In this document: piece after piece, positions 5,506 to 54,063 of the stretch
Position numbering within the stretch: position 1 is the first letter of the stretch
How the letters are laid out: every line of letters starts with the position of its first letter
Source: Octopus vulgaris
Taxonomy: Eukaryota
DNA: 64,000 nt
Direction of reading: 5' to 3'
Assembly (NCBI GenBank): GCA_951406725.2
Contig: OX597815.1
Coordinates: 196,726,001 to 196,790,000, forward strand
The notes under the pieces: model-generated
Databases searched by the model: none
What the model saw: only the letters and a program-made list of their open reading frames with translations
What the model was told of the DNA's origin: nothing
Position numbers and translations under genes: made by a program

Positions 5506-6131
5506 GCCAATAAATCGATGGTTATATTATATGTATATCAAGATGGTGACAAAGAGTGGAGAGAGAGAGGGGAAAAGAAAGAGAAAGTGAAAGATAGGAG
5601 AGAGAGGAGATGTGAAGAGAGAAAGAGGGAGAAAGGAAAGAGAGGGATAGGAGATAGAGAACTACTGTACAATATCTCAAGTTTTGACAAGGAGGAAGGT
5701 TTGGCTATTTCACGTAGTATGGGCAATCAGGCATCGTAGAGATTCGAAGACAACTTTGTTATTTATTCACTGTGTGCCGACGATATAGCTATTACAATCA
5801 AATCAATGGTAGCAAAGTTCAGACAAGTAACAACTATCATTGCAGGCATGTGAAGAGAGAGATTTTTATATCTGTGTGTTTGTTTGCATCTGTGTATGAG
5901 TGTATGTATGTATGCATTGATGTATGTATGTCTGCAATCATGTATCTTTCAATATCAGTAACGACCCTCTTCTCCGACCAGCTGTACCTTGGTAGCTGCT
6001 GCTCGCAAAGTTACTCTTCAAGTTATACTTTGATATAGCAATTTTAGCTAGAGCATCACTCTATCACTCTCTCTCCCACGTCCTCCACCCCTCCTCCTCC
6101 TACTACTACTACTAATACTACTACCACCACC

Positions 6132-6167
<36 letters not shown>

Positions 6168-6459
6168 TGCCCAAGATCACTTTGTTTCGAGAATGATGAA
6201 AACGTTTTGAAAACTTTGCATAGATCTCTAAGCAGGTATCGCCAAGTTTTTGGCAAAATTTGATGCAGATTCTCTACTCAAATTTCTTTGTCATGTTCAA
6301 TGCGACGATCACACTCTCCGCACGTTCCTTCCAAGCACTGCTGTAAACAGCGGAGATGAGCTAAAACGTTAAAACTTAGTGCTCATGCACAGCGGAGTTT
6401 AGGATCAGTTTGTGCTTAGCAGCCTCCTATGTGACCCTTCCGTCCGGCATTCGCCATGT

Positions 6460-6640
6460 TAGATCTCTAGCCACTACACATTCTTTATTTTCTCTCCTTG
6501 TTTCTTACTGCGTTCCTTTCTGTGGAAGGGCGTAGGCTCGAAGCGGTAAAGACTTTTTCACTTCCCGAGCGTTATACTAATATATCTATTTGTTGTCTAC
6601 ACCACCTATATTCGTCTCTTGTTTTTTTTTAATTCTCCCT
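6460..6640 (+). mobile_element. About 200-bp hammerhead mini-element, degenerate copy (family also at 11415-11600, 36725-36915, 63480-63685)
   Basis: Shared core CTGTNGAAGAGCGTAGGCTCGAAACGTAAAAGA and shared downstream sequence among four copies. Confidence 0.65.
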
Positions 6641-9908: not shown

Positions 9909-9977
9909 GATAAAAATTAAACGCACTCAAAACCTTAATCACAGTATCTTACAGCAGAAACGGTATACAATAATACA

Positions 9978-10382
9978 AGGCGGCGAGCTGGCAGAAATGT
10001 TAGCACGCCGGGCGAAATGCTTAGCGGTATTTCGTCTGCCGCTACGTTCTGAGTTCAAATTCCGCAGAGGTCGACTTTGCCATTCATCCTTTCGGGGTCG
10101 ATTAAATAAGTACCAGTTACGCACTGGGGTCGATATAATCGATTTAATCCGTTTGTCTGTCCTTGTTTGTCCTCTCTGTGTTTAGCCCCTTGTGGCTAGT
10201 AAAGAAATAGGTATTTCGTCTGCCGCTACTTTTAGAATTCAAATTCCGCCGAGGTCGACTTTGCCTTTCATTCTTTTGGGGATCGATAAAATAAGTACCA
10301 GTTCAACACTGGGGTCGATGCAATCGACTCATTCTCACCTCCTCCAAACTGCCCTTGTAGCAAAAATTTGGAATAATTATTA
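9978..10382 (+). mobile_element. Meta-domain SINE dimer: a Tx1-tailed unit followed at the internal target site by the rest of a SINE with a different tail
   Basis: Head GGCGGCGAGCTGGCAGAA, core GTCGACTTTGCCTTTCATCCTTTCGGGGTCGAT..AAGTACCAG, junction AAAGAAATA|GGTATTTCGTCTGCCG near 10210. Confidence 0.85.
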
Positions 10383-18771: not shown

Positions 18772-19494
18772 TGTACACTCTCTCTCTCACACACACACAC
18801 ACAAATGCACACACACTCTCTCTCTCTCACACACACACGCACCGTCGGATAAAATACCTGAAAGTAATTTTTTGTCTTATACAATTAATCTTGCCGAAAT
18901 CAATTTCGTGTTTCTTCGATTCGGTTTGAAAAAATAATATCCAAGACTTTATTGTTGATTTAATCGATTGCCCTCTTTTCTCAAAATCTATAACTGTGTT
19001 TCCATATCAGAAATCACTTCAGTAGTTTAGTGTCAGGTAACAGAAACGTTAGAGTGTTTTGTTAAAATCGCTTCTGACCTATTTCAACCGTTTTATTTTC
19101 ATTTTTTTGCCTTTCAGTTTCATCAAGGACAAATAGTAAACCGTTTAACTGCATTCATTAAAATTAAATAGAATTTCATAGTCTTTCACAGAAATAGAGA
19201 GCCATTAAGTAGGTAGGTAAATATTTTGAAAATACTGAAAGTACATTTACAATATAGTAAAAGCGTTTTTTTTTCTTTTCGCATACGCAGATGAAATACT
19301 ATATTCAGTTAATAAATTTAGTTTCCCTTCCGTATTTGTTGTTGTAGATAAAGGAGAACAGTTATTAGTTCAGTGTAGGATATTCATTTAAATGCCTAAC
19401 ATTATGCGCTCAACGTCCATCGAAGCTATATTTTGCGGTGAGCTGCGGCTATATTTTGCTATATATACTTACGGCTGTATTTTGCGGCTAAAAC

Positions 19495-20263
19495 GCGGCG
19501 AGCTGGCAGAATCGTTAGCACGCTGGCCGGAATGCTTAATCGACTTAATCCCTTTGTCTGTCCTTGTTTTTCCCCTCTATGTTTAGCCCCTTGTGGGCAA
19601 TAAAAAAATAAGAATCGTTAGCACGCCGGCCGGAATGCTTAGCAGTATTTCGGCTACCGTTACGTTCTGAGTTCAAATTCCACCGAGGTCGACTTTGCCT
19701 TTCATCCTTTCGGGGTCGATAAATTAAGTACCAGTTACACACCGGGGTTGATGTAATCGACTTAATCCGTTTGTCTGTCCTTGTTTGTCCCCTCTGTGTT
19801 TAGCCCCTTGAGGGTAGTAAAGAAATAGGTATTTCGTCTGCGGAGGCGGCGAGCTGGCAGAAAAGTTAGCACGTCGGGCGAAATGCGTAGCCGTATTTCG
19901 TCTGCCGTTATGTTGTGTGTTCAAATTCCGCCAAGGTCGACTTTGCCTTTCATCCTTTCGGGGTCGATAAATTAAGTGCCAGTTACACACTGGGGTTGAT
20001 GTAAACGACTTAATCCGTTTGTCTGTCCTTGTGTGTCCCCTCTGTGATTAGCCCCTTGTGGGTTGTAAAGAAATAGGTATTTCGTCTGCCGCTACGTTCC
20101 GTTCTGAGTTCAAATTCCGCCGAGGTTGACTTTGCCTTTCATCCTTTCGGGGTCGATAAATAACGTACCAGTTATGCAGTGGGTCGATGCAATCGACTTA
20201 ATCCCTTTGTCTATCCTTGTTTGTCCCCTCTATGCTTAACCCCTTGTGGGCAATAAAGAAATA
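19495..20263 (+). mobile_element. Nested array of Meta-domain SINEs
   Basis: Full-length copy 19842-20075 flanked by 14-bp GGTATTTCGTCTGC repeats; 5'-truncated copy 19539-19610 flanked by 31-bp repeats. Confidence 0.85.
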
Positions 20264-20594
20264 CATATTTTACATTTGTGCATTCTGAATATAATAATTA
20301 AATTAGACATTTATTTCGAAGGTTTTATCTACACAGCAAAGAATGCAAGAAGACAGAATCACATTTCTGTCGACACCATCAATACAACAGCAATAACACC
20401 AACAATATAAACACATCCCAACAATGAACATACTCTCTAACGGAAAATTCAGACATTATATAATGTACACGTCTTTTTTGTCAGATGACAGCCTGTAAAA
20501 AATATGCGCGAGATGTAACTACTGTGTCTCTGACGGCGAGCGACAACATAGATGTCGCTTCTTGACTTGGTCAGTAATAGCTGATGCTGTTGCT

Positions 20595-28377: not shown

Positions 28378-29700
28378 CTTAGGGATCCTGCTGTCCTTCA
28401 TTATAATAAGGTGTCCGGTCCAACGTAACCGGTTCTTGTGCACCATCACCTCAATACTCAAAATACCAGCTGTCCTCAGGACCTGTGTGTCTGGAGTTTT
28501 TAAGGTCCTGCCACCATTCAGAATGTGTCTGAGACATCTCTGATGATAGCGTTCAAGAACCTTTACATGATGTTTCTAAAGGGTTCACCTCTCACATGAT
28601 TAAAGGAACGATGTCAGTACACGTGCACGGTATACAGCAATTTTTGTTTGTCGTGTGATGCCATGCTGGGACTAGACACGAGACTGAAGAGACCGGAAGA
28701 AATCAGTTGCTCTCTGCAGCCTGAAAGATATTTCATCATCCAGGGAGCAAGAACGGCTGGGTTCGCTGCCCAGGTAGACGAACTTGACCACCACTTTCAG
28801 AATTGTTCCTTCAACGAAGATAGCTGGTTTCCACATATGAATTTCTTGGTGCTGCTAAGAACATTACAACAGTCTTGTCCAGGCTAATGTTAAATTCAAA
28901 TGCCTTGCAAGAAGCAGAAATACGATTCATAAATAGTTACGTATCATCCATTGTATGAGTGACTAAGTCACAGTCATCAGCATTAAAGAGGTCACGAATA
29001 AGAGACTGGAAAACTTTTGAATTGGCAGCAAATCTGCGCAGATTAAAGAGGCGGCCAGAAGATCGATATCTGACATATATTCCCAGAGATCTAACCTTAG
29101 CAAAAGCATGAGTAAAAGCAGCAGCAAAGTACAAAGAAAAGAGAGTTGGGGCAAGGATGTCACCCTGCTTGACACCATTCTCTACAGGGAAATTGTGAAT
29201 GGAAAGTGACCCTGGCAGAAACCAAGGCTGCAATTAAAGGACTGTGTCAAGTCCCCATTAAAGGCCTGACATATATTCCCAGAGATCTAACCTTAGCAAA
29301 AACATGAGTAAAAGCAGCAGCAAAGTACAAAGAAAAGAGAGTTGGGGCAAGTATGTCACCCTGCTTGACACCATTCTCTACAGGGAACTTGTGAATGGAA
29401 AGAGACCCCAGCAGAAACCAAGGCTGCAATTAAAGGACTGTGTCAAGTCCCCATTAAAGGCCTGTGATATGCAGGAAACTGACTGGAAAAACAATGCCTG
29501 TCATCGTCACAGATGGAGGAAGCCGGTTAAGGAGGGGGTCGTCACTTTTGAGAGAGCAGGTATTCAGCATGAAGAACTCAAGCATGCTGCTCGAAAGCTC
29601 ACGGCTGGTGTAGTGAATGGGGAAAGCTTGGTCTGCAATGTTTGCGGTCGTGTATGCTTGTCAAGAGCAAGTTTCATTAGCCACCAACGGAGCTGCAAAT
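28378..29700. pseudogene. RTE-clade LINE 3' fragment with an inverted 5' part and a 196-bp tandem duplication
   Basis: Minus strand: GVKQGDILAPTLFSLYF, LFNADDCDL, RLRWTGHLIIMKDSRIPK; plus strand: ILYRELVNGKRP...CNVCGRVCLSRASFISHQRSC, typical RTE C-terminus. Confidence 0.85.
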
Positions 29701-29710
29701 ACAAAATATA

Positions 29711-29941
29711 TGTTTCTTTATTACCCACAAGGGGCTAAACATAGAGGAGACAAACAAGGACAGACAAACGGATTAAGACGATTACATCGACCCCAGTGCT
29801 TAACTGGTACTTAATTTATCGACCCAGAAAGGATGAAAGGCAAAGTCGACATCGGCGGAATTTGAACTCAGAACGTAACGGCAGACGAAATACGGATACG
29901 CATTTCGCCCGGCGTGCTAACGCTTCTGCCAGCTCGCCGCC
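29711..29941 (-). mobile_element. Meta-domain SINE monomer with TSD
   Basis: Flanked by AATACAAAATATA direct repeats. Confidence 0.88.
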
Positions 29942-44895: not shown

Positions 44896-45737
44896 CGAAT
44901 CAGTCTATATGTTAATATCAATCTATATACTGCTGTTTCTAAACGAAATATATTTTTAAGTGTTATATAGATACGCCACAATAAGAAATCTGATGATAGA
45001 AAATCGATCTTACTGAAAAGTTGTTTAAATGTATCTTTGCACTCGCAAAATGTAAACTAAAATGTAAAGATTTTGCTTATATAGTTCATTCATGCATATT
45101 GACAAACGAACCTCTACAAGAAATTTTAACAATTATTTGAGGTTTAGCATAGAGATAAACCCATCCTAAACTACGCTTAACAAATGGGAACCCTTTCTAA
45201 TTATAAAACATAGTGGATGAGTGCAAGCTTGACTGATTGACTCCGTTATGCGCAAGATTAAATTAAACAATAATGACACGCTGTCTAGAAGTCACCCAGG
45301 GGCGGCGTACATTACAGCAATAGTGAAGAAGAAGAGCGTGTTTTCTAAAATAAAATGGATATAATGAAAACAAGCACCAAATATTCCTAACAGAAAAAAG
45401 AGAAACTTCAAATATTAGTATGAGGAAAACAAATTAAATTATTACAGCAATATAACTTCAAAAGAAAAATGGAAATCTATATTTCTGTATAGATTTCCCC
45501 TACAAGTTAAACAGTATCATAAATCAGCTCTCTAGAAATCATTCCTGCTTAGTTGCCACCGCCTCGACGTATCCTGATAATTATGTTTTGTTCTGTTTTG
45601 TTAATTCTCCATGATGTAACTAATATACTAATCAAGTTAACCCAAAAGGCACTTTAAATGCACCAAATAGTTTCTTTAATAATACCATATATTTTCCAAA
45701 ATTTGTACTTTTTACTGCATACACTTTTACATATCTT

Positions 45738-46657
45738 TTTCTTTATTGCCTACAAGGGGCTAAACATAGAGGGGACACACAAGGACAGACATAGGTATTA
45801 AGTCGATTATATCGACCCCAGTGCGTAACTGGTACTTAATTTATCGACCCCGAAAGGATGAAAGGCAAAATCGACCTCGGCGGAATTTGAACTCAGAACG
45901 TAGCGGCAGACGAAATACCTATTTCTTTACTACCCACAAGGGGCTAAACACAGAGAGGACAAACAAGGACAGACAAACGGATTAAGTCGATTATATCGAC
46001 CCCAGTGCGTAACTGGTTCTTAATTTATCGACCCCGAAAGGATGAAAGGCAAAGGCGACCTCGGCGGAATTTGAGCTCAGAACGTAACGGCAGACGTAAT
46101 ACCTATTTCTTTATTACCCACAAGGGGCTAAACACAGAGGGGACAAACAAGGACAGACATGGGTATTAAGTCGATTACATCGACCCCAGTGCGTAACTGG
46201 TACTTAATTTATCGACCCCGAAAGGATGAAAGGCAAAGGCGACCTCGGCGGAATTTGAACTCAGAACGTAGCGGCAGACGAAATACCTATTTTCTTTACT
46301 ACCCACAAGGGGCTAAACATAGAGGGGACAAACAAGGACAGACATAGGTATTAAGTCGATTACATCGACCCCAGTGCGTAACTGGTACTTAATTTATCGA
46401 CCCCGAAAGGATGAAAGGTGAAGTCGACCTCGGCGGAATTTGAACTCAGAACGTAGCGGCAGACGAAATACCTATTTTCTTTACTACCCACAAGGGGCTA
46501 AACATAGAAGGGACAAACAAGGACAGACATAGGTATTAAGTCGATTACATCGACCCCAGTGCGTAACTGGTACTTAATTTATCGACCCCGAAAGGATGAA
46601 AGGTGAAGTCGACCTCGGCGGAATTTGAACCCAGAACGTAACGGCAGACGAAATACG
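45738..46657 (-). repeat. Tandem array of five about 184-bp Meta-domain SINE units, each truncated at the same internal site
   Basis: Tails at about 45740, 45921, 46105, 46290 and 46475; junction CGGCAGACGAAATACC|TATTTCTTTA repeated. Confidence 0.92.
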
Positions 46658-46854
46658 AATTTCTTTATTGCCCACCGGGGGCCAAACATAGATATGGACA
46701 GTACAACTGATGGGATCAGTGAATCGATATGATTTTACATAAATGTGACATCAAAAATAAAATACAATACATAAAAATCGAATGGAATACACAGTACAAA
46801 AACAATACAAATGAAGCGATGATCAAGTTACGCTCCGATCCCACAAGCCCCGAT

Positions 46855-49800
46855 CTACCGCTGATACCTTTTTATTTTTCCTTTTTTTTTTTCTTCCCCT
46901 CGTCTATTCCCACGGTTCCTTGCACGCACAACACTCGTGCAACATACTTCCATCTCTTTTGGAACGTACACTCTGACAGACACCTCTTCTCCAGCCACAG
47001 TTTCCTTTTCAAATGAAAAGAAAAAAGGATCGTAAATTGTCACCAGAGATAAAGTTGCCTGTCTTAATTCCTTTTATCCTGGTCTTCCATACAGCCTCTT
47101 TTGCTATTGCTACAACCGTGAGAAAACAATTCTTACCTTCGTTCGTTAGAACTCCCGGTGGGTCAATTTTTATAATTGACTCAGTCGACAGCAGTACTCG
47201 TCCTTCGCCGGACAACAGATGTTCAGCATAAGCCCACATTTCAGTTATCTCCAGACACTGAACAATAGCGTGAGGGACGGTTTCCCTGTCCCCCCGCATC
47301 TTGGACAGGTCGGCGACTGACGTTTACCATGTCTTGCGAGCTTATCCCAAACGGGCAAGACACCTCTGTAGCATTGCCAGGTTAAGGACTTTTGGAAGTT
47401 GTCCAACGTTCTCAACCCGAATGTACGATGAAACAAGCTGTCCAGTTGAATAAATCCGAGACCTAGAGTCGACCCCAGGCCATCGTCGCATTCAGACTCT
47501 ACCAACCCACTATATAAAATCCGTGTGGAACCCCCACCGCTGGCGTTGCCCGAGCGCCGGAACAGCAAGAGGGCCTTACGGCACTCTTTATGCCACTCAC
47601 TCGACCTCGGTCTACGAGAACACCAGGCTTCCTGTTCACAAAAACTCTTGAACTCAGGGAACATTTGTCTGGCCAGCGGAGACCACACCCGTTCACTATC
47701 CAGGAGAATCCAGAGGTGCCTCAACCTCAACGCATGTCTGCGCATCATTAACCAAGGCATCCCTAAACCTCCATTTAAAGGCTTTTGACAGCAGACAGAG
47801 CGTTTCACAAGTGGCAACCTGCCCTTCCACAAAAAGCGAAAGAGCTGTCTCTCCAACCTGATCAACCACGAATCCGGACAGGGCACGACGGTCAGGCGGT
47901 AGGTAATGACCGATGCGATAAACACATTGGCCACTTCCGCCCTCCCTTTCAGGGATAGCCACCGCCAAGACCAGGTCTTGACTACTGCAGCCACCCTGCT
48001 CAATACCTCCGTCCAGTTCTTCTCTATCTGGAGGCCTGGTCCAAACCAGACTCCCAGAAACTTAACCGGTCCCTCCGTCCAGCGCCTAACAACACTGTCT
48101 GAAGGCATCGACTTGCCAACCCAGGTGCCGAGCTGCTAGGTATCGATGGTCAACCCTATCAAAAGCTTTAGACTTGTCCAAATGCACCAATGCCCCACCT
48201 TTGCCAGATTTATTACCAAACCTCTCTATGGTATAGCGAATAAGATGGAGGGTATCCTGAATGGTTCTGCCTGGGATGGCACATGTCTGTGCCTCCCCGA
48301 CTATACCATTTGCGACACGCGCCAACCTTTTTGCTAGAACCTTGGCCAAAATCTTCACTTCTGCGTTTAACAGAGTGATGGGCCTGAAATTCTCTAGAAC
48401 GTCCCCCTTGTCCGGGTCCTTTCTGACCAACGTCACTACTCCCCGGCGCACAGATCTGGGGATAAACCCATTCTGTTTCCAGTTCGTGTACACGTCAGTC
48501 AGTAGTTGCCCGAACAAGTCTGGCATACATTTATACAGCTCGTACGGAAGACCATCAAGTCCCGGTGACTTACCCGCTTTACAATCGGCCAAAGCCTCCA
48601 TCACCTCCTCAGGTGTGATTGGCCCTTCGCAAGACTCCGCATCCGACCCCGAGAGGCACGGCAGCCCAGTAAGAAAGTCCTCGATGGCTCTCCCACCACC
48701 AGGACCGCCGTCACCCCCGAACAGCTGGGCGAAATACTCCCGAAAGACCTCACACATTTTCTCGGGTTCGTTTATCAAGACACCATTTTGATTCGTCAAA
48801 GACCGAATAGAGGAACTATTTCCTTGCCGAGCTTCCACCACTCGGGCCCATCCAGCGGCTTTGATTCCTTCACTTCCCATTGCACGTAACTTAGCTCTGG
48901 TAATACTTCCCATGTGGTGGGCTTCAAGATGCTGGTTTAACTCCAGTCTTTTCACCCTCGCTTGGTCTGTATTACCAGTCCTCCAGGCTTCTTCTAGTTC
49001 CTTAACTAGACCATCTCCTATTTTACGTCCCTTCTTAGCTAAACTTATGCTAAACCTAATAGACTCATATTTGATGGCTCTTTTAGGGCGTACCACCATT
49101 TGTTATTAATGATGGTACCTGTTAATGCCCTCTGTATTAACATCTTGATCGGCTTTCTGTACTCCTCAATCGCCAAAAGGGACGTATTGAGTTTCCAGTA
49201 GCCAGATCCCTGTCTATGCAACTTATCTACCGTCAGTTTACAGGTAACCATCTTGTGGTCACTGTAGCTGACTAGAAAAAACTGTGGACACTCAACTATG
49301 GACTTATCTTTTTCTCTAATTAAAATCCTATCTAGATATGTTCTGGTAGACCCGTCACTATTTAACTACATCCACTGTGGAGTATTCGGGTGCTCCAACC
49401 TATATGGATCTGCTAGCTGAAATTGACTTAGCAGATCCCGAAAGCCTGGGTTACATTTTCTGTTCATGTTCGAGTTTGAGCCAACACAATCTGTGTGTGC
49501 TGCACATATTGTATTAAAGTCTCCTAACACTACTAGTGAATGCGACGTGGCTAGGAACTTTCCTAGGCCACGAAAATATTCAGTTTGCGGGCCAATAATG
49601 TTTGGTGCGTAAATAGCGACCAGCCTGATTGTCTTGCCACAACTGAATGTCAAGTCGAGAACGACCAGCCTGCCTTCTGGGTCAGAAAAAACCAACTTTT
49701 TCTCGGCTACCCGGTTTCTTTTTAGTAGGACCAACACCCCACCCCCACCTCCCGCCCGACTCGGAGAAACGTATTTCTCGTAGCCGTTTAGGAGGGGGAG

Positions 49801-49944
49801 CAGATCTCTTGGCCCCTTCACCCGGGTTTCCGTTGCAACAATTACATCCAAATTTCTCGACCTGATGTCATTCAGAAAGCGTCCTTGCTTCCAGCTTGAC
49901 AACAGGCCATGAACATTTAAACAACCAATGTGAATAGCCATCAC
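46855..49944 (-). pseudogene. ORF2 (APE endonuclease, reverse transcriptase, zinc finger), disrupted
   Basis: IGCLNVHGL, ATETR, LGDFN, YLDRIL, SDHKMV (APE); KSPGLDGLP, FRPITLLN, DKSKAFDRVDH (RT); CPRCG..ETVPHAIVQC; in-frame stop at 49366, frameshifts near 49080, 47290 and 47010, RT core missing at about 48130. Confidence 0.92.
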
Positions 49945-52535
49945 TTACCTGTTTAATTAGGATTGTCCGGTGGAGGGGGACCCTCCACCTTTTTTGATCC
50001 AGGGTCGGAGGTGGACGGTCTTGGGAAATAGATTTGTCAAAATCCCGTCTCACCACCGACACAGAATTATCAGGTGGAGGGGGAATCTCCACCTTTTCCT
50101 TTTCTCGCGGGATCGGAGCTGGTAATCCATGAAATATCGACTTGTTAAAATCTAATCTCAATGAAGATACAGTCTTTCTGTACTTATTTTGTAGAATTCT
50201 ATAAGTCTTATTTGAGACTTCATATATGTCGTAATTGATAAATTCCTCTGAAAGGTTATCAATTTTTTTTACAGTCTTTATGAGTTGAATGTCTCTCATG
50301 AGCTCAGTATCTTTAGTGTATACGGCTATTATGCCTTTTTCTTCTTTTTTTCTTCTGGCAGTCTTTTTTGGTCGTTGTTCTGTAGTAGTCGCCGCTCTCG
50401 GCTGGGTTGCTGGTTGTATTTTTCTTTTGTTTGTTGTTTTTTCTCATCTGTTTCTTCTTTATCTTCTTCCTCTTTGTCTTTTTTCTCTTCTTCCTCCTCT
50501 TCTTCATTTTCCTTGCAGTTCCTTCGAATGTGGCCTAATTGACCACATAAAAAACATCGAGGTTTTCGGCCTTCAACAAACACCACGAGGTTCTCCTCCC
50601 CTACCTCAATTGTCTCAGGAATTGTTTGAATTATTTTAGGGTCCGCTTGAATGAGAAGATTAATTGTTTGACCATCCCAGCGTGGGTTTTCCGTAGCGGT
50701 AGCCTGGAGGAGAGTAATTTTTTCTACCTCTTTGATTAGGACTGCCGCCAACAACCACATAGGTTCGACCTCTGGCGGGACCCTTGTAATTTTTATTCGC
50801 GACGTCCTCATCCCCATATAATAGGGGATTAACTCCACGTCGTTCGTTTTCAACGTTTCAACTGAGTTCTTGTGTGCTATTTCTTTATTGGTGAACCTTA
50901 CTTCCACCGTTCCGAATTTTTTTCCTCTTCTCAGAAATACTACGTCGCCCAATATTGGCTTTAAGCACTTTTTCTATTTTCTCTTCTGACATTCTTTCAA
51001 TTTTTCTTTTTTGTAGACAATATGTTTTGAAAATTATTGTTTTTTGCTTTTCTTCCTGTAATAACTTTTGCGGAGTTTCAATTTTCACACCGTTGTCAGT
51101 TATTTCCATCATTTTGCTGTATTTCATAATTTTGCTTTTATTCGTCGACAGTATCTGGGTTCCACCCCCAGCAGCCAACGCAAAACTTTTTTTTCCATTT
51201 TTTGGTTCTATCTGGATGCTAGGCACATCAATTATTCTCTTCGACACAATGCCTTTGTTCTCTGGCAAAGTCGGAAACTCTTCTGGTGAAAGTTCTGACG
51301 AGCTTTCAGACACATCTCCAAAAATATCAAATATATTATCCTCTCTGCTATTCCTTCTTGTAGCGGGGGAAACCCCTATTTCCTTGTCTGTATTTGGCTC
51401 CTCGCCGGACATGTATTTCCTCCTCTCAACAGGAGAAACAAGTATTTCTGCTCCAACGGTAGGCTCCGTGCTACCACAAGCACTAAGTGTTTCTTCTTTA
51501 TCTTCTTCCTCTTTGTCTTTTTTCTCTTCTTCCTCCTCTTCTTCATTTTCCTTGCAGTTCCTTCGAATGTGGCCTAATTGACCACATAAAAAACATCGAG
51601 GTTTTCGGCCTTCAACAAACACCACGAGGTTCTCCTCCCCTACCTCAATTGTCTCAGGAATTGTTTGAATTATTTTAGGGTCCGCTTGAATGAGAAGATT
51701 AATTGTTTGACCATCCCAGCGTGGGTTTTCCGTAGCGGTAGCCTGGAGGAGAGTAATTTTTTCTACCTCTTTGATTAGGACTGCCGCCAACAACCACATA
51801 GGTTCGACCTCTGGCGGGACCCTTGTAATTTTTATTCGCGACGTCCTCATCCCCATATAATAGGGGATTAACTCCACGTCGTTCGTTTTCAACGTTTCAA
51901 CTGAGTTCTTGTGTGCTATTTCTTTATTGGTGAACCTTACTTCCACCGTTCCGAATTTTTTTCCTCTTCTCAGAAATACTACGTCGCCCAATATTGGCTT
52001 TAAGCACTTTTTCTATTTTCTCTTCTGACATTCTTTCAATTTTTCTTTTTTGTAGACAATATGTTTTGAAAATTATTGTTTTTTGCTTTTCTTCCTGTAA
52101 TAACTTTTGCGGAGTTTCAATTTTCACACCGTTGTCAGTTATTTCCATCATTTTGCTGTATTTCATAATTTTGCTTTTATTCGTCGACAGTATCTGGGTT
52201 CCACCCCCAGCAGCCAACGCAAAACTTTTTTTTCCATTTTTTGGTTCTATCTGGATGCTAGGCACATCAATTATTCTCTTCGACACAATGCCTTTGTTCT
52301 CTGGCAAAGTCGGAAACTCTTCTGGTGAAAGTTCTGACGAGCTTTCAGACACATCTCCAAAAATATCAAATATATTATCCTCTCTGCTATTCCTTCTTGT
52401 AGCGGGGGAAACCCCTATTTCCTTGTCTGTATTTGGCTCCTCGCCGGACATGTATTTCCTCCTCTCAACAGGAGAAACAAGTATTTCTGCTCCAACGGTA
52501 GGCTCCGTGCTACCACAAGCACTAAGTGTTTTCAA
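49868..52535 (-). pseudogene. ORF1 (zinc-knuckle nucleic-acid-binding protein) with 1039-bp internal tandem duplication and frameshifts
   Basis: CFLCGQLGHIRRNC (CX2CX4HX4C) present twice; pieces 51924-52535, 50885-51991, 50329-50952 and 49868-50299. Confidence 0.88.
50449..52531. repeat. Apparently identical 1039-bp tandem duplication
   Basis: 50449-51492 equals 51488-52531; translated ORFs identical; 5-bp TGTTT microhomology at the junction. Confidence 0.93.
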
Positions 52536-52640
52536 TTGAAAACTCCAACAGTTAAGTTATTCAACAGTTTAACAAGAAACAACAGTTGTTAACAATATTA
52601 ACACCACGAAACAGCAATTCTTACTTCACGAACATATGTG

Positions 52641-52704
52641 CGGCAGACGAAATACGGCTACGCATTTCGCCCGGCGTGCTAACGTTTCTGCCAGCTCGCT
52701 GCCT
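52641..52704 (-). mobile_element. Head of the host Meta-domain SINE, displaced about 6 kb by the LINE insertion
   Basis: CGGCAGACGAAATACGGCTACGCATTTCGCCCGGCGTGCTAACGTTTCTGCCAGCTCGCTGCC continues the unit interrupted at 46657. Confidence 0.92.
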
Positions 52705-53439
52705 TCAGCACCAAATAGTTTCTTTAATCACACCATATATTCTCCAATATTTGTAGCTTTTACTGCATACGCTTTTACATATCTTAATAAAGAGAGGGCG
52801 ATTTTTGTAGTTAGTGTAAACATTGGCAGACTTAATGTTTAACAGTCATGCTAGAGGTCAAATATTGACAATGATTCACAGAAATATTAGTGGGATTAAG
52901 AAAAGAACTTTTTGGTAAGACTGAAAGCTTTACATCATTAATATATAAAAAAGTGAATGTCTTTTTTAATATCGTGAGATATTGCGAAGAATTCTCAAGA
53001 TTATTTTGTCGAATATTATATATAAACAAAACATACTTAGAAAAATTTCACTAAGTAGACTAAAACAAAAACAATCAGATGTCCCGTGGGGAATGACTAC
53101 TCGACATATTATAAAGCAAGGAAAACATTACAATAATTTTTATTTTGTCTTTTAAGAAAACAAAAGAATAGAAAAATTATATTAGAATGAGGAAAATCCC
53201 TATAGTACAGGGTATACCAAAAGCTCTTGCATTTTAGTAGCATATGATTTCTGTAGCACACTGAAGCAACCACTAATATTATCAAGCATGTTGTAAGAAG
53301 ACAACACAATTTTTTTTTTAAGATGGAAATTTAGAAATCATCTGCTCAAAGAACTATCGATTAAATAACCTACAGCATGAACGATAGATTCAACATTGTA
53401 AACGAGCATGTTTGGAAAAATTGGTAACGTTATGTTTTC

Positions 53440-54063
53440 AGTTTTTGGCACAGGACCAACAGTTTTCTAGAGGACGAGGAAGTCGATTAGATCTATCCCA
53501 GTGCTCAACTGGTACTCATTTGAACTCATATCATTTGAACTTAAGCCGGACGAAATGCTGCGCAGCGTTCTCACAATTCTTATTTTTTTATTGCCCACAA
53601 GAGGGCTAGACATAGAGGGGACAAACAAGGACAGACAAAGGGATTAAGTCGATTACATCGACCCCAGTGCGTAACTGGTACTTAATTTATCGATCCAGAA
53701 AGGATGAAAGGCAAAGTCGATCTCGGCGGAATTTGAACTCAGAACGTAGTGGCATACGAAATATCTATTTCTTTACTACCCACAAGGGGCTAAACACAGA
53801 GAGGACAAACAAGGACAGACAAACGGATTAAGTCGATAACACCGAATCCAGTGCGTAACTGGTATTTAATTTGTCGACCCCGAAAGGATGAAAGGCAAAG
53901 TCGACCTCGGCGGAATTTGAACTCAGAACAAACGGCAGACGAAATACGGCTACTCATTTCGCCCGGCGTGCTAACGTTTCTGCCAGCTTCGCCGCCTTCG
54001 ACAGACGAAATATCACTAAGCATTTCGCCCGGCGTTCTCACAATTCTGCTACCTCGTCGCCTT
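53440..54063 (-). mobile_element. Triple-nested Meta-domain SINEs
   Basis: Old copy split by GCGTTCTCACAATTCT repeats (53565-53580 and 54032-54047); inner full-length copy 53766-54000 flanked by CA(T/G)ACGAAATATC. Confidence 0.8.

Follow-up and report, generated by a model that had tools for sequence, protein, structure and literature searches.

A Tx1-like LINE family of Octopus vulgaris inserts at one base in the head of a tRNA-type SINE, a site also used by tail-bearing copies of the SINE itself

Our analysis of a 64,000-nucleotide (nt) stretch of the Octopus vulgaris genome (GCA_951406725.2, contig OX597815.1, positions 196,726,001 to 196,790,000; here referred to as the window) revealed a long interspersed element (LINE) lodged in the head of a short interspersed element (SINE). 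This LINE, a Tx1-like retrotransposon lacking long terminal repeats (non-LTR) and of a family that we designate A, is found almost exclusively at a single base of the SINE head, and SINE copies bearing a LINE-like 3′ tail use the same base, which we consider likely to reflect the action of the LINE enzyme. The window copy belongs to the young subfamily, occupies positions 46658 to 52640 on the negative strand, and is 98 to 99% identical to most other copies. On the same strand, it is bracketed by an exact 16-bp target duplication, the 5′ copy of which forms the end of the SINE head (52641 to 52656) and the 3′ copy of which lies at 46642 to 46657; the match extends on neither side and sets the LINE borders exactly where the original prediction had placed them. 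The 64-nt 5′ part of the head (52642 to 52705, negative strand) contains an A-box-like motif that is separated by the LINE from what we take to be the B box, both boxes having been assigned by eye against the consensus, and neither ARAGORN nor Rfam reported a tRNA in the window SINE. All genome-wide counts given below refer to one assembly of 2.8 Gb in 227 contigs, and the letters A to E for LINE families and A and B for SINE tails were coined in this analysis.

The 77 family-A copies comprised 40 scored 3′-end matches (of 1,103 candidates) and another 37 loci drawn from 71 exact matches to the tail. The 3′ end was located at the target site in 75 of the 77, and in the two exceptions (L209 and L227) the duplicated 16 bp are similar to the target site at the nick. 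On the 5′ side, all 40 scored copies adjoin a SINE head (38 at full length, one with a junction deletion, and one truncated; two of them represent one segmental duplication). The other 37 copies include 20 that lie next to a head or a tail/target junction, two that are off target, and 15 truncated ones with no head upstream. Eight young copies with different truncation points all still lie in a SINE head, and the hosts carry either tail type (tail B in 11 cases). We then compared 36 scored copies, leaving aside the segmental duplicate, one copy that has no SINE body downstream, and two that lack a 5′ end. The median pairwise distance was 10.9% for the heads and 8.8% for the bodies, in contrast to 1.0% and 1.5% for two LINE segments. 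Because the SINE flanks are far more diverged than the LINEs and the truncations vary, the copies represent independent insertions into pre-existing SINEs. With truncated copies included, far more than 20% of the copies share one flank type, the threshold for target specificity used by Kojima (PMC4494074). Family A is target-specific for one base in the SINE head.

A single LINE insertion that later moved as a composite of head, LINE, and body is scarcely credible as the source of this pattern. Such a composite would agree with the full length of most young copies and with the behavior of a T variant, present in the 5′ duplication copy in 20 of 36 cases and in the 3′ copy in 2 of 36, which clusters on the LINE tree (6 changes against 12.4 when shuffled, 0 of 500 shuffles), so that a few terminal 5′ bases are carried along with the LINE. 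However, the SINE halves are 6 to 10 times more divergent than the LINEs, hosts of both tail types are found, and truncated copies adjoin heads. We discarded the composite, together with the equally remote view that the LINE tail is a SINE leftover, on the grounds of flank divergence, the truncated copies in heads, and the presence of the tail in sister families described below.

Older LINE copies are located at tail/target junctions (L204 and L213) or behind another LINE (L212 and L214), which reveals that insertion renews the target site. The base at the LINE 3′ junction is G in 19 of 24 older-subfamily copies and C in 51 of 53 young ones, and all seven informative truncated young copies lie in a newer head variant that accounts for about one-third of tail-A heads. 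Furthermore, the base after the LINE tail may differ from that of the host (L236 and L215). Together with the T variant tracking the LINE tree, this observation makes it likely that both ends of the LINE RNA carry a few target bases and that the "duplication" is partly element borne. The last 20 head bases, examined for conversion by LINE RNA, showed 1.6% divergence, compared with 1.7% in free heads that had been preselected for matching. Complementarity between the 3′ untranslated region and the target was also considered and rejected, as no 7-mer match was found in either direction in L039.

The LINE terminates in a 3′ tail (46659 to 46705, negative strand) that is common to SINE tail A and to the sister families and consists of a 4-bp hairpin followed by AATAAA. 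The original prediction had reported a match at 31 of the terminal 34 nt. The shared tail is real and reaches about 48 nt, whereas the seven window SINE tails match at 25 to 29 of the 34 positions, the best value is 30 of 34, and 31 is attained only with a best-case older tail type. The stem-loop described in the tail is predicted but is no more stable than shuffled sequences (z of 0.65); its second stem pair is nevertheless compensatory across families, being C-G in families A, C, and E and the SINE and G-C in B (29/30) and D (24/29). The LINE and the SINE thus share a common 3′ tail with a conserved hairpin, as LINE-SINE partner pairs do. Families A to D all carry the hairpin and AATAAA tail. 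Family B, whose ORF2 (open reading frame 2) is 57% identical, carries the tail and ends in ATT repeats in all 30 fetched copies. The ORF2 sequences of families C and D are 60 to 78% identical in matched stretches and their flanks are mostly unrelated; one copy of each lacked the tail, so that 29 were counted in each family, and none of the 29 family-D copies lies at the target site or at the second SINE site described below. Since the tail is found in families that do not target the SINE, including every one of the ATT-targeting B copies, it is native to the LINEs and does not represent a leftover SINE fragment. Copies of C and D often keep a few common bases past AATAAA, without poly(A), which suggests that copying starts about 9 to 11 nt past AATAAA with the help of short pairing. 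These dispersed sisters are the likely movers of SINE copies that land elsewhere.

Several further features of the lineage were observed. Family B (L140 to L169, e.g., G000:C4:93.80-93.83 Mb, C47, and C50) is very young, with an open ORF2 of 1,145 amino acids (aa) in many copies, and occurs in head-to-tail arrays that repeat approximately every 5.87 kb. Family E (L239 to L268) is dispersed and carries an ORF1-like zinc-knuckle frame directly before the same 3′ tail; no ORF2 match was found within 1.7 kb, and the family is likely a nonautonomous, ORF1-only passenger. Families of the lineage also adjoin or nest in one another (L208:1717-4387 and 5697-6540; L226:4726-5342).

The SINE is approximately 230 bp long, target duplications are seen around it, and the 24-mer of its tail A occurs exactly 101,678 times in the genome. 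Directly after 26,366 of these tail ends stand the nine bases with which the target site begins, while the tail-B 19-mer is followed by the site within 10 bases only seven times genome-wide, from a total of about 8,000 that we scaled from 7 against 87 in 1.48 Mb of fetched DNA (0 against 11 in its random part). In a random sample of 40 evenly chosen 10-kb stretches (400 kb, six units unclassified), 10 of 21 tail-A units but none of 21 other-tail units were at the site (Fisher P value of 5e-4). In the window, 8 of 17 tail-A units are at the site, including all eight tails originally listed as abutting it. Self-insertion of the SINE at the site depends on tail A.

Full-length SINEs nested at the site are rarer, with only 28 exact matches genome-wide, although their split between strands (23 to 5) suggests an undercount. 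At 14 of 18 distinct nested loci, both in heads and at earlier junctions, a whole SINE lies between two 16-bp copies, three loci end differently, and one was unparsed. Nested SINEs with private host variants on both sides were identified at L134, L195, and window positions 53750/53999. At the latter (region 53581 to 54063, negative strand), a full-length SINE (53767 to 53998) is nested in an older SINE at the target site, the junction at 53766 reads GATATTTCG, and the duplication copies (53750 to 53765 and 53999 to 54014) match at 13 of 16 positions and have in common a private G>A change. The claim that the SINE inserts into its own head, with the same duplication as the LINE and with repeated use of earlier junctions, therefore holds, and it is very likely that this occurs by retrotransposition. 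The closed loop between the two elements that had been envisaged does not hold, since 74% of exact tail-A ends lack the exact site after them (11 of 21 were elsewhere in the random sample) and nonspecific sisters share the tail.

Head-only tandem runs with a period of 65 bp or approximately 85 bp were found at the target site (L182/L183, L197/L198, and L064:6537-6971). A second preferred site at head position ~17 accounts for 2,176 exact tail-A junctions (L170 to L181 and, in the window, ~19610 and 53581), with a duplication of about 14 bp in L175, and in L226 a family-C copy at this second site and a family-A copy at the first occupy one head. No LINE dedicated to this second site was found: family C was considered and rejected as not site-specific, being there in only 2 of 29 tail-bearing copies. 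The preference for the second site may reflect pairing of the RNA end.

The common site, the length of the duplication, and the dependence on the tail make it probable that family-A ORF2 drives self-insertion of the SINE. Several observations weigh against such a simple picture. Fifteen truncated, mostly older copies have no head upstream. The SINE tail is nearer to families C and D (43 identities with one to two mismatches) than to family A (38 identities with eight mismatches), and its loop agrees with B, C, and D but not with A. The tail was therefore borrowed from the local Tx1-like lineage, though not demonstrably from family A, the donor in the original prediction. The SINE junction base is G in 49 of 55 cases, as opposed to the C of the young LINE copies. 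Where tail A is joined to a unit with another tail, the sequence goes on as host type in 16 of 25 cases and is unclear in 3, but continues as tail-A, passenger-type sequence in 6, which points to longer read-through or recombination. Finally, neighboring units are near-identical in places (180/184 in the window; L100), so that duplication inflates the junction counts. Judged by the junction base, clear traces of the young subfamily among the SINEs are scarce, and the older subfamilies fit better. Divergence from the majority was approximately 0 to 2% for young LINE tails, 3 to 4% for old ones, and 4 to 6% for SINE units, albeit in small samples of mixed subfamilies. Given the G at the SINE junction and these divergence levels, the bulk of SINE self-insertion probably dates to the time of the older family-A subfamilies.

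Alternatively, the LINE could be site-specific while SINE self-insertion relies on RNA-DNA homology, with read-through transcripts pairing with nicked SINEs, being copied by the enzymes of families C and D, and passing on the junction contained in the RNA. The affinity of the SINE tail to C and D and the six passenger-type junctions are in line with this explanation, as are the 10 of 25 dispersed tail-A copies that continue into AGGT, which is either left over from the site or imitates it, and the small number of exact nested full-length junctions (28) relative to the 26,366 tail junctions. On the other hand, nested full-length SINEs bear the 16-bp duplication of the LINE, some with private host variants on both sides, and host-type sequence follows straight after most junctions into other-tail units. 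Furthermore, there are 1,660 cases of tail A with GGTATTT plus a purine directly behind it, even though non-SINE sites of this sequence are as frequent as SINE sites (32 versus 24 per 400 kb); pairing over 7 nt alone thus falls approximately 20-fold short of the observed preference, while longer read-through pairing could still contribute. We regard this alternative as unlikely.

It is more improbable still that a small number of insertions gave rise to the arrays through tandem duplication at the DNA level, or through unequal exchange at the 16-bp repeats, and that arrays then spread as blocks. Near-identical neighbors (window units 1 and 2; L100) and a run of ten junctions spaced by approximately 185 bp (C1:4676262-4677963) would be expected from such a process. 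However, 25 junctions join tail A to an other-tail unit, which is impossible by duplicating one SINE, other tails almost never precede the site, nested head-to-head copies exist, and as many as 17 positions separate units in the window.

With family A as the probable driver, we propose that its endonuclease would nick the SINE-head site and its reverse transcriptase (RT) would copy LINE or SINE RNA there by target-primed reverse transcription. ORF2 would bind the hairpin and AATAAA tail, and no poly(A) would be laid down; copying would begin about 9 to 11 nt past AATAAA, aided by pairing between the target and a small number of read-through bases, and a second nick 16 bp on would give rise to the duplication. 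When the cargo is the SINE, the cDNA would be homologous to the host head and allow seamless second-strand priming, adding one headless 184-bp unit and leaving the A and B boxes intact, while a rare join at the cDNA end would yield a full nested SINE copy. Every insertion would leave a fresh copy of the site. The SINE would then constitute a multipartner passenger, most copies of which are put at new loci by the dispersed sisters and so seed targets, and new SINE copies may serve the LINE as a "safe harbor." More tentatively, and with no better than an even chance in our view, the LINE lineage has specialized on its own passenger: the sisters scatter the SINE, family A adds itself and SINE units, the site is renewed, and the LINE preference has tracked the change in the SINE head. 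The ORF2 proteins of the sisters (57 to 78% identical) would then span SINE-specific, ATT-specific, and dispersed insertion and form a natural series for the gain of specificity by LINEs with an apurinic/apyrimidinic endonuclease (APE).

The proteins of family A are those of an L1/Tx1-type APE non-LTR retrotransposon. The uninterrupted ORF2 of L039 (1,133 aa) contains APE (PF03372), RT (PF00078), and zf-RVT (PF13966) domains, and the 508-aa ORF1 of L053, located upstream of ORF2, contains a CCHC knuckle (PF00098). The top PDB match of the L039 ORF2 was human L1 ORF2p (E value of 8e-64), one of the homologues bears the name "transposon TX1 149 kDa" (29%, E value of 3e-84), and the nearest named ORF2 relative is from Argonauta hians (57% identity). 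In a tree of 26 of 120 homologues, built from these sequences without the curated Tx1L, Keno, and Kibi references and an L1 outgroup, the octopus ORF2 falls into its own clade with the Argonauta protein. Families A, C, and D group together with support, to the exclusion of B, P0001, and the Argonauta protein. A sister clade consists of unnamed full-length ORF2 proteins from public assemblies that are 35 to 42% identical (P0003 to P0025). Older family-A subfamilies (L204, L205, L210, and L213; L212 and L214) differ in the 5′ end and ORF1 yet keep the site, which suggests repeated 5′ replacement, and the 5′ part of one family-A copy (L223) is inverted, as twin priming would give.

The window copy itself is full length but dead, which the original prediction had overlooked. 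Its ORF1 region (50449 to 52531), with the CCHC zinc knuckle, contains a 1,039-bp tandem duplication found in this copy only, and ORF2 is broken into three pieces, namely, a stop-terminated APE piece at its start (49369 to 49941; PF03372, E value of 5e-10), an RT piece in the middle (48086 to 49102), where approximately 360 bp present in other copies have been lost near 48135 to 48139, and a C-terminal piece (47245 to 48135), the zf-RVT region of which is visible in L039; all are on the negative strand. Downstream lie five units of SINE body plus tail A of approximately 184 bp each (45738 to 46641, negative strand), four of them joined at the target site, which differ pairwise at 4 to 17 positions. 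The whole SINE and LINE composite is bracketed by a second duplication of 78 bp (3′ copy, 45660 to 45737; 5′ copy, 52708 to 52785; 71/78 identical, no strand assigned), likewise overlooked, which probably stems from insertion of the first host SINE and has aged since; if so, the LINE arrived last at this locus. Elsewhere on the positive strand, a SINE array (19492 to 20270) contains a full-length copy at a tail/target junction (19828 to 20089) and a second-site junction at ~19610, and a tail-A unit lies inside a SINE with a different tail (9977 to 10329). The LINE stretch is present in 20 of the 24 sequencing runs listed, with no RNA run among the holders listed, and contigs from four sequencing runs break inside the repeats. 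In addition, a 196-bp tandem duplication (29070 to 29464; 96% identical) lies beside a 158-aa frame (29262 to 29738) with a terminal Cys/His motif and resembles the end of another LINE.

Retroelements that make sites for their own machinery include Alu, which inserts into Alu A-tails via L1, and Zepp, which inserts into Zepp; the Alu case differs in its loose TTTT/AA preference and Zepp in being an autonomous element that targets itself. Tx1 families are known to target other transposons, and SINEU passengers share the target, with tandem insertions (PMC4494074). The crocodilian Tx1-Mar/SINEU system is the closest published case (Kojima 2015, PMC4494074): a Tx1 LINE prefers a site in another transposon, the SINE shares it (90% of SINEU-3 and 13 to 23% of SINEU-1/2), tandem SINE insertions sandwich a duplication, and each site is presumed to have a LINE family of its own. 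There, however, the target is a Mariner DNA transposon rather than the passenger's own tRNA-type head, and SINEU elements have small nuclear RNA (snRNA) heads and poly(A), with no Repbase LINE match to the SINEU-1 3′ half, whereas the octopus tail is shared with the LINE. Xenopus Tx1L is likewise an APE-type Tx1 element with an endonuclease that is sequence-specific in vitro (PMC1950540) and with one site in a nonautonomous transposon, Tx1D (PMC4494074), but Tx1D is a DNA transposon not mobilized by Tx1L. Octopus family B with its (ATT)n ends (30/30) resembles the microsatellite-targeting Kibi and Koshi; unlike these and Keno, which targets U2 snRNA, family A targets a mobile SINE, and its sisters C and D are dispersed (PMC4494074). 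As in L2/CR1 LINE-SINE pairs, the 3′ tail of the SINE derives from a LINE and has a conserved hairpin (PMC4824008), although the donor here is a Tx1-like lineage in which the tail is common to at least four autonomous families.

Octopus repeats consist to a large part of SINEs, with tRNA-Core and tRNA-Deu as the main types (PMC8967140). The "Meta-domain" label originally given to the window SINE was not borne out: in MetaSINEs, the tRNA region is immediately followed by a Meta domain of 66 bp, and comparison by eye with BivaMeta-SINE1 and BivaMD-SINE1 from the supplement of PMC4824008 gave no clear match. The excerpts of PMC4824008, PMC4758252, PMC5804259, PMC3531059, PMC8967140, PMC5203782, and PMC8869645 describe no SINE-targeting LINE, and the literature searched, as far as its excerpts go, contains no SINE that combines the roles of target and tail-bearing passenger, although Repbase or Dfam names or target notes may exist.

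Tx1 elements are thus known to target other repeats, while no SINE serving at once as target and as tail-bearing passenger was found in the papers searched. Site-specific non-LTR elements are of interest as insertion tools, and close sisters with different target habits make an old question testable, that is, whether the specificity of APE-type LINEs stems from the endonuclease or from RNA pairing. If our interpretation is true, it would account for tens of thousands of 184-bp SINE arrays in the SINE-rich genome of the octopus.

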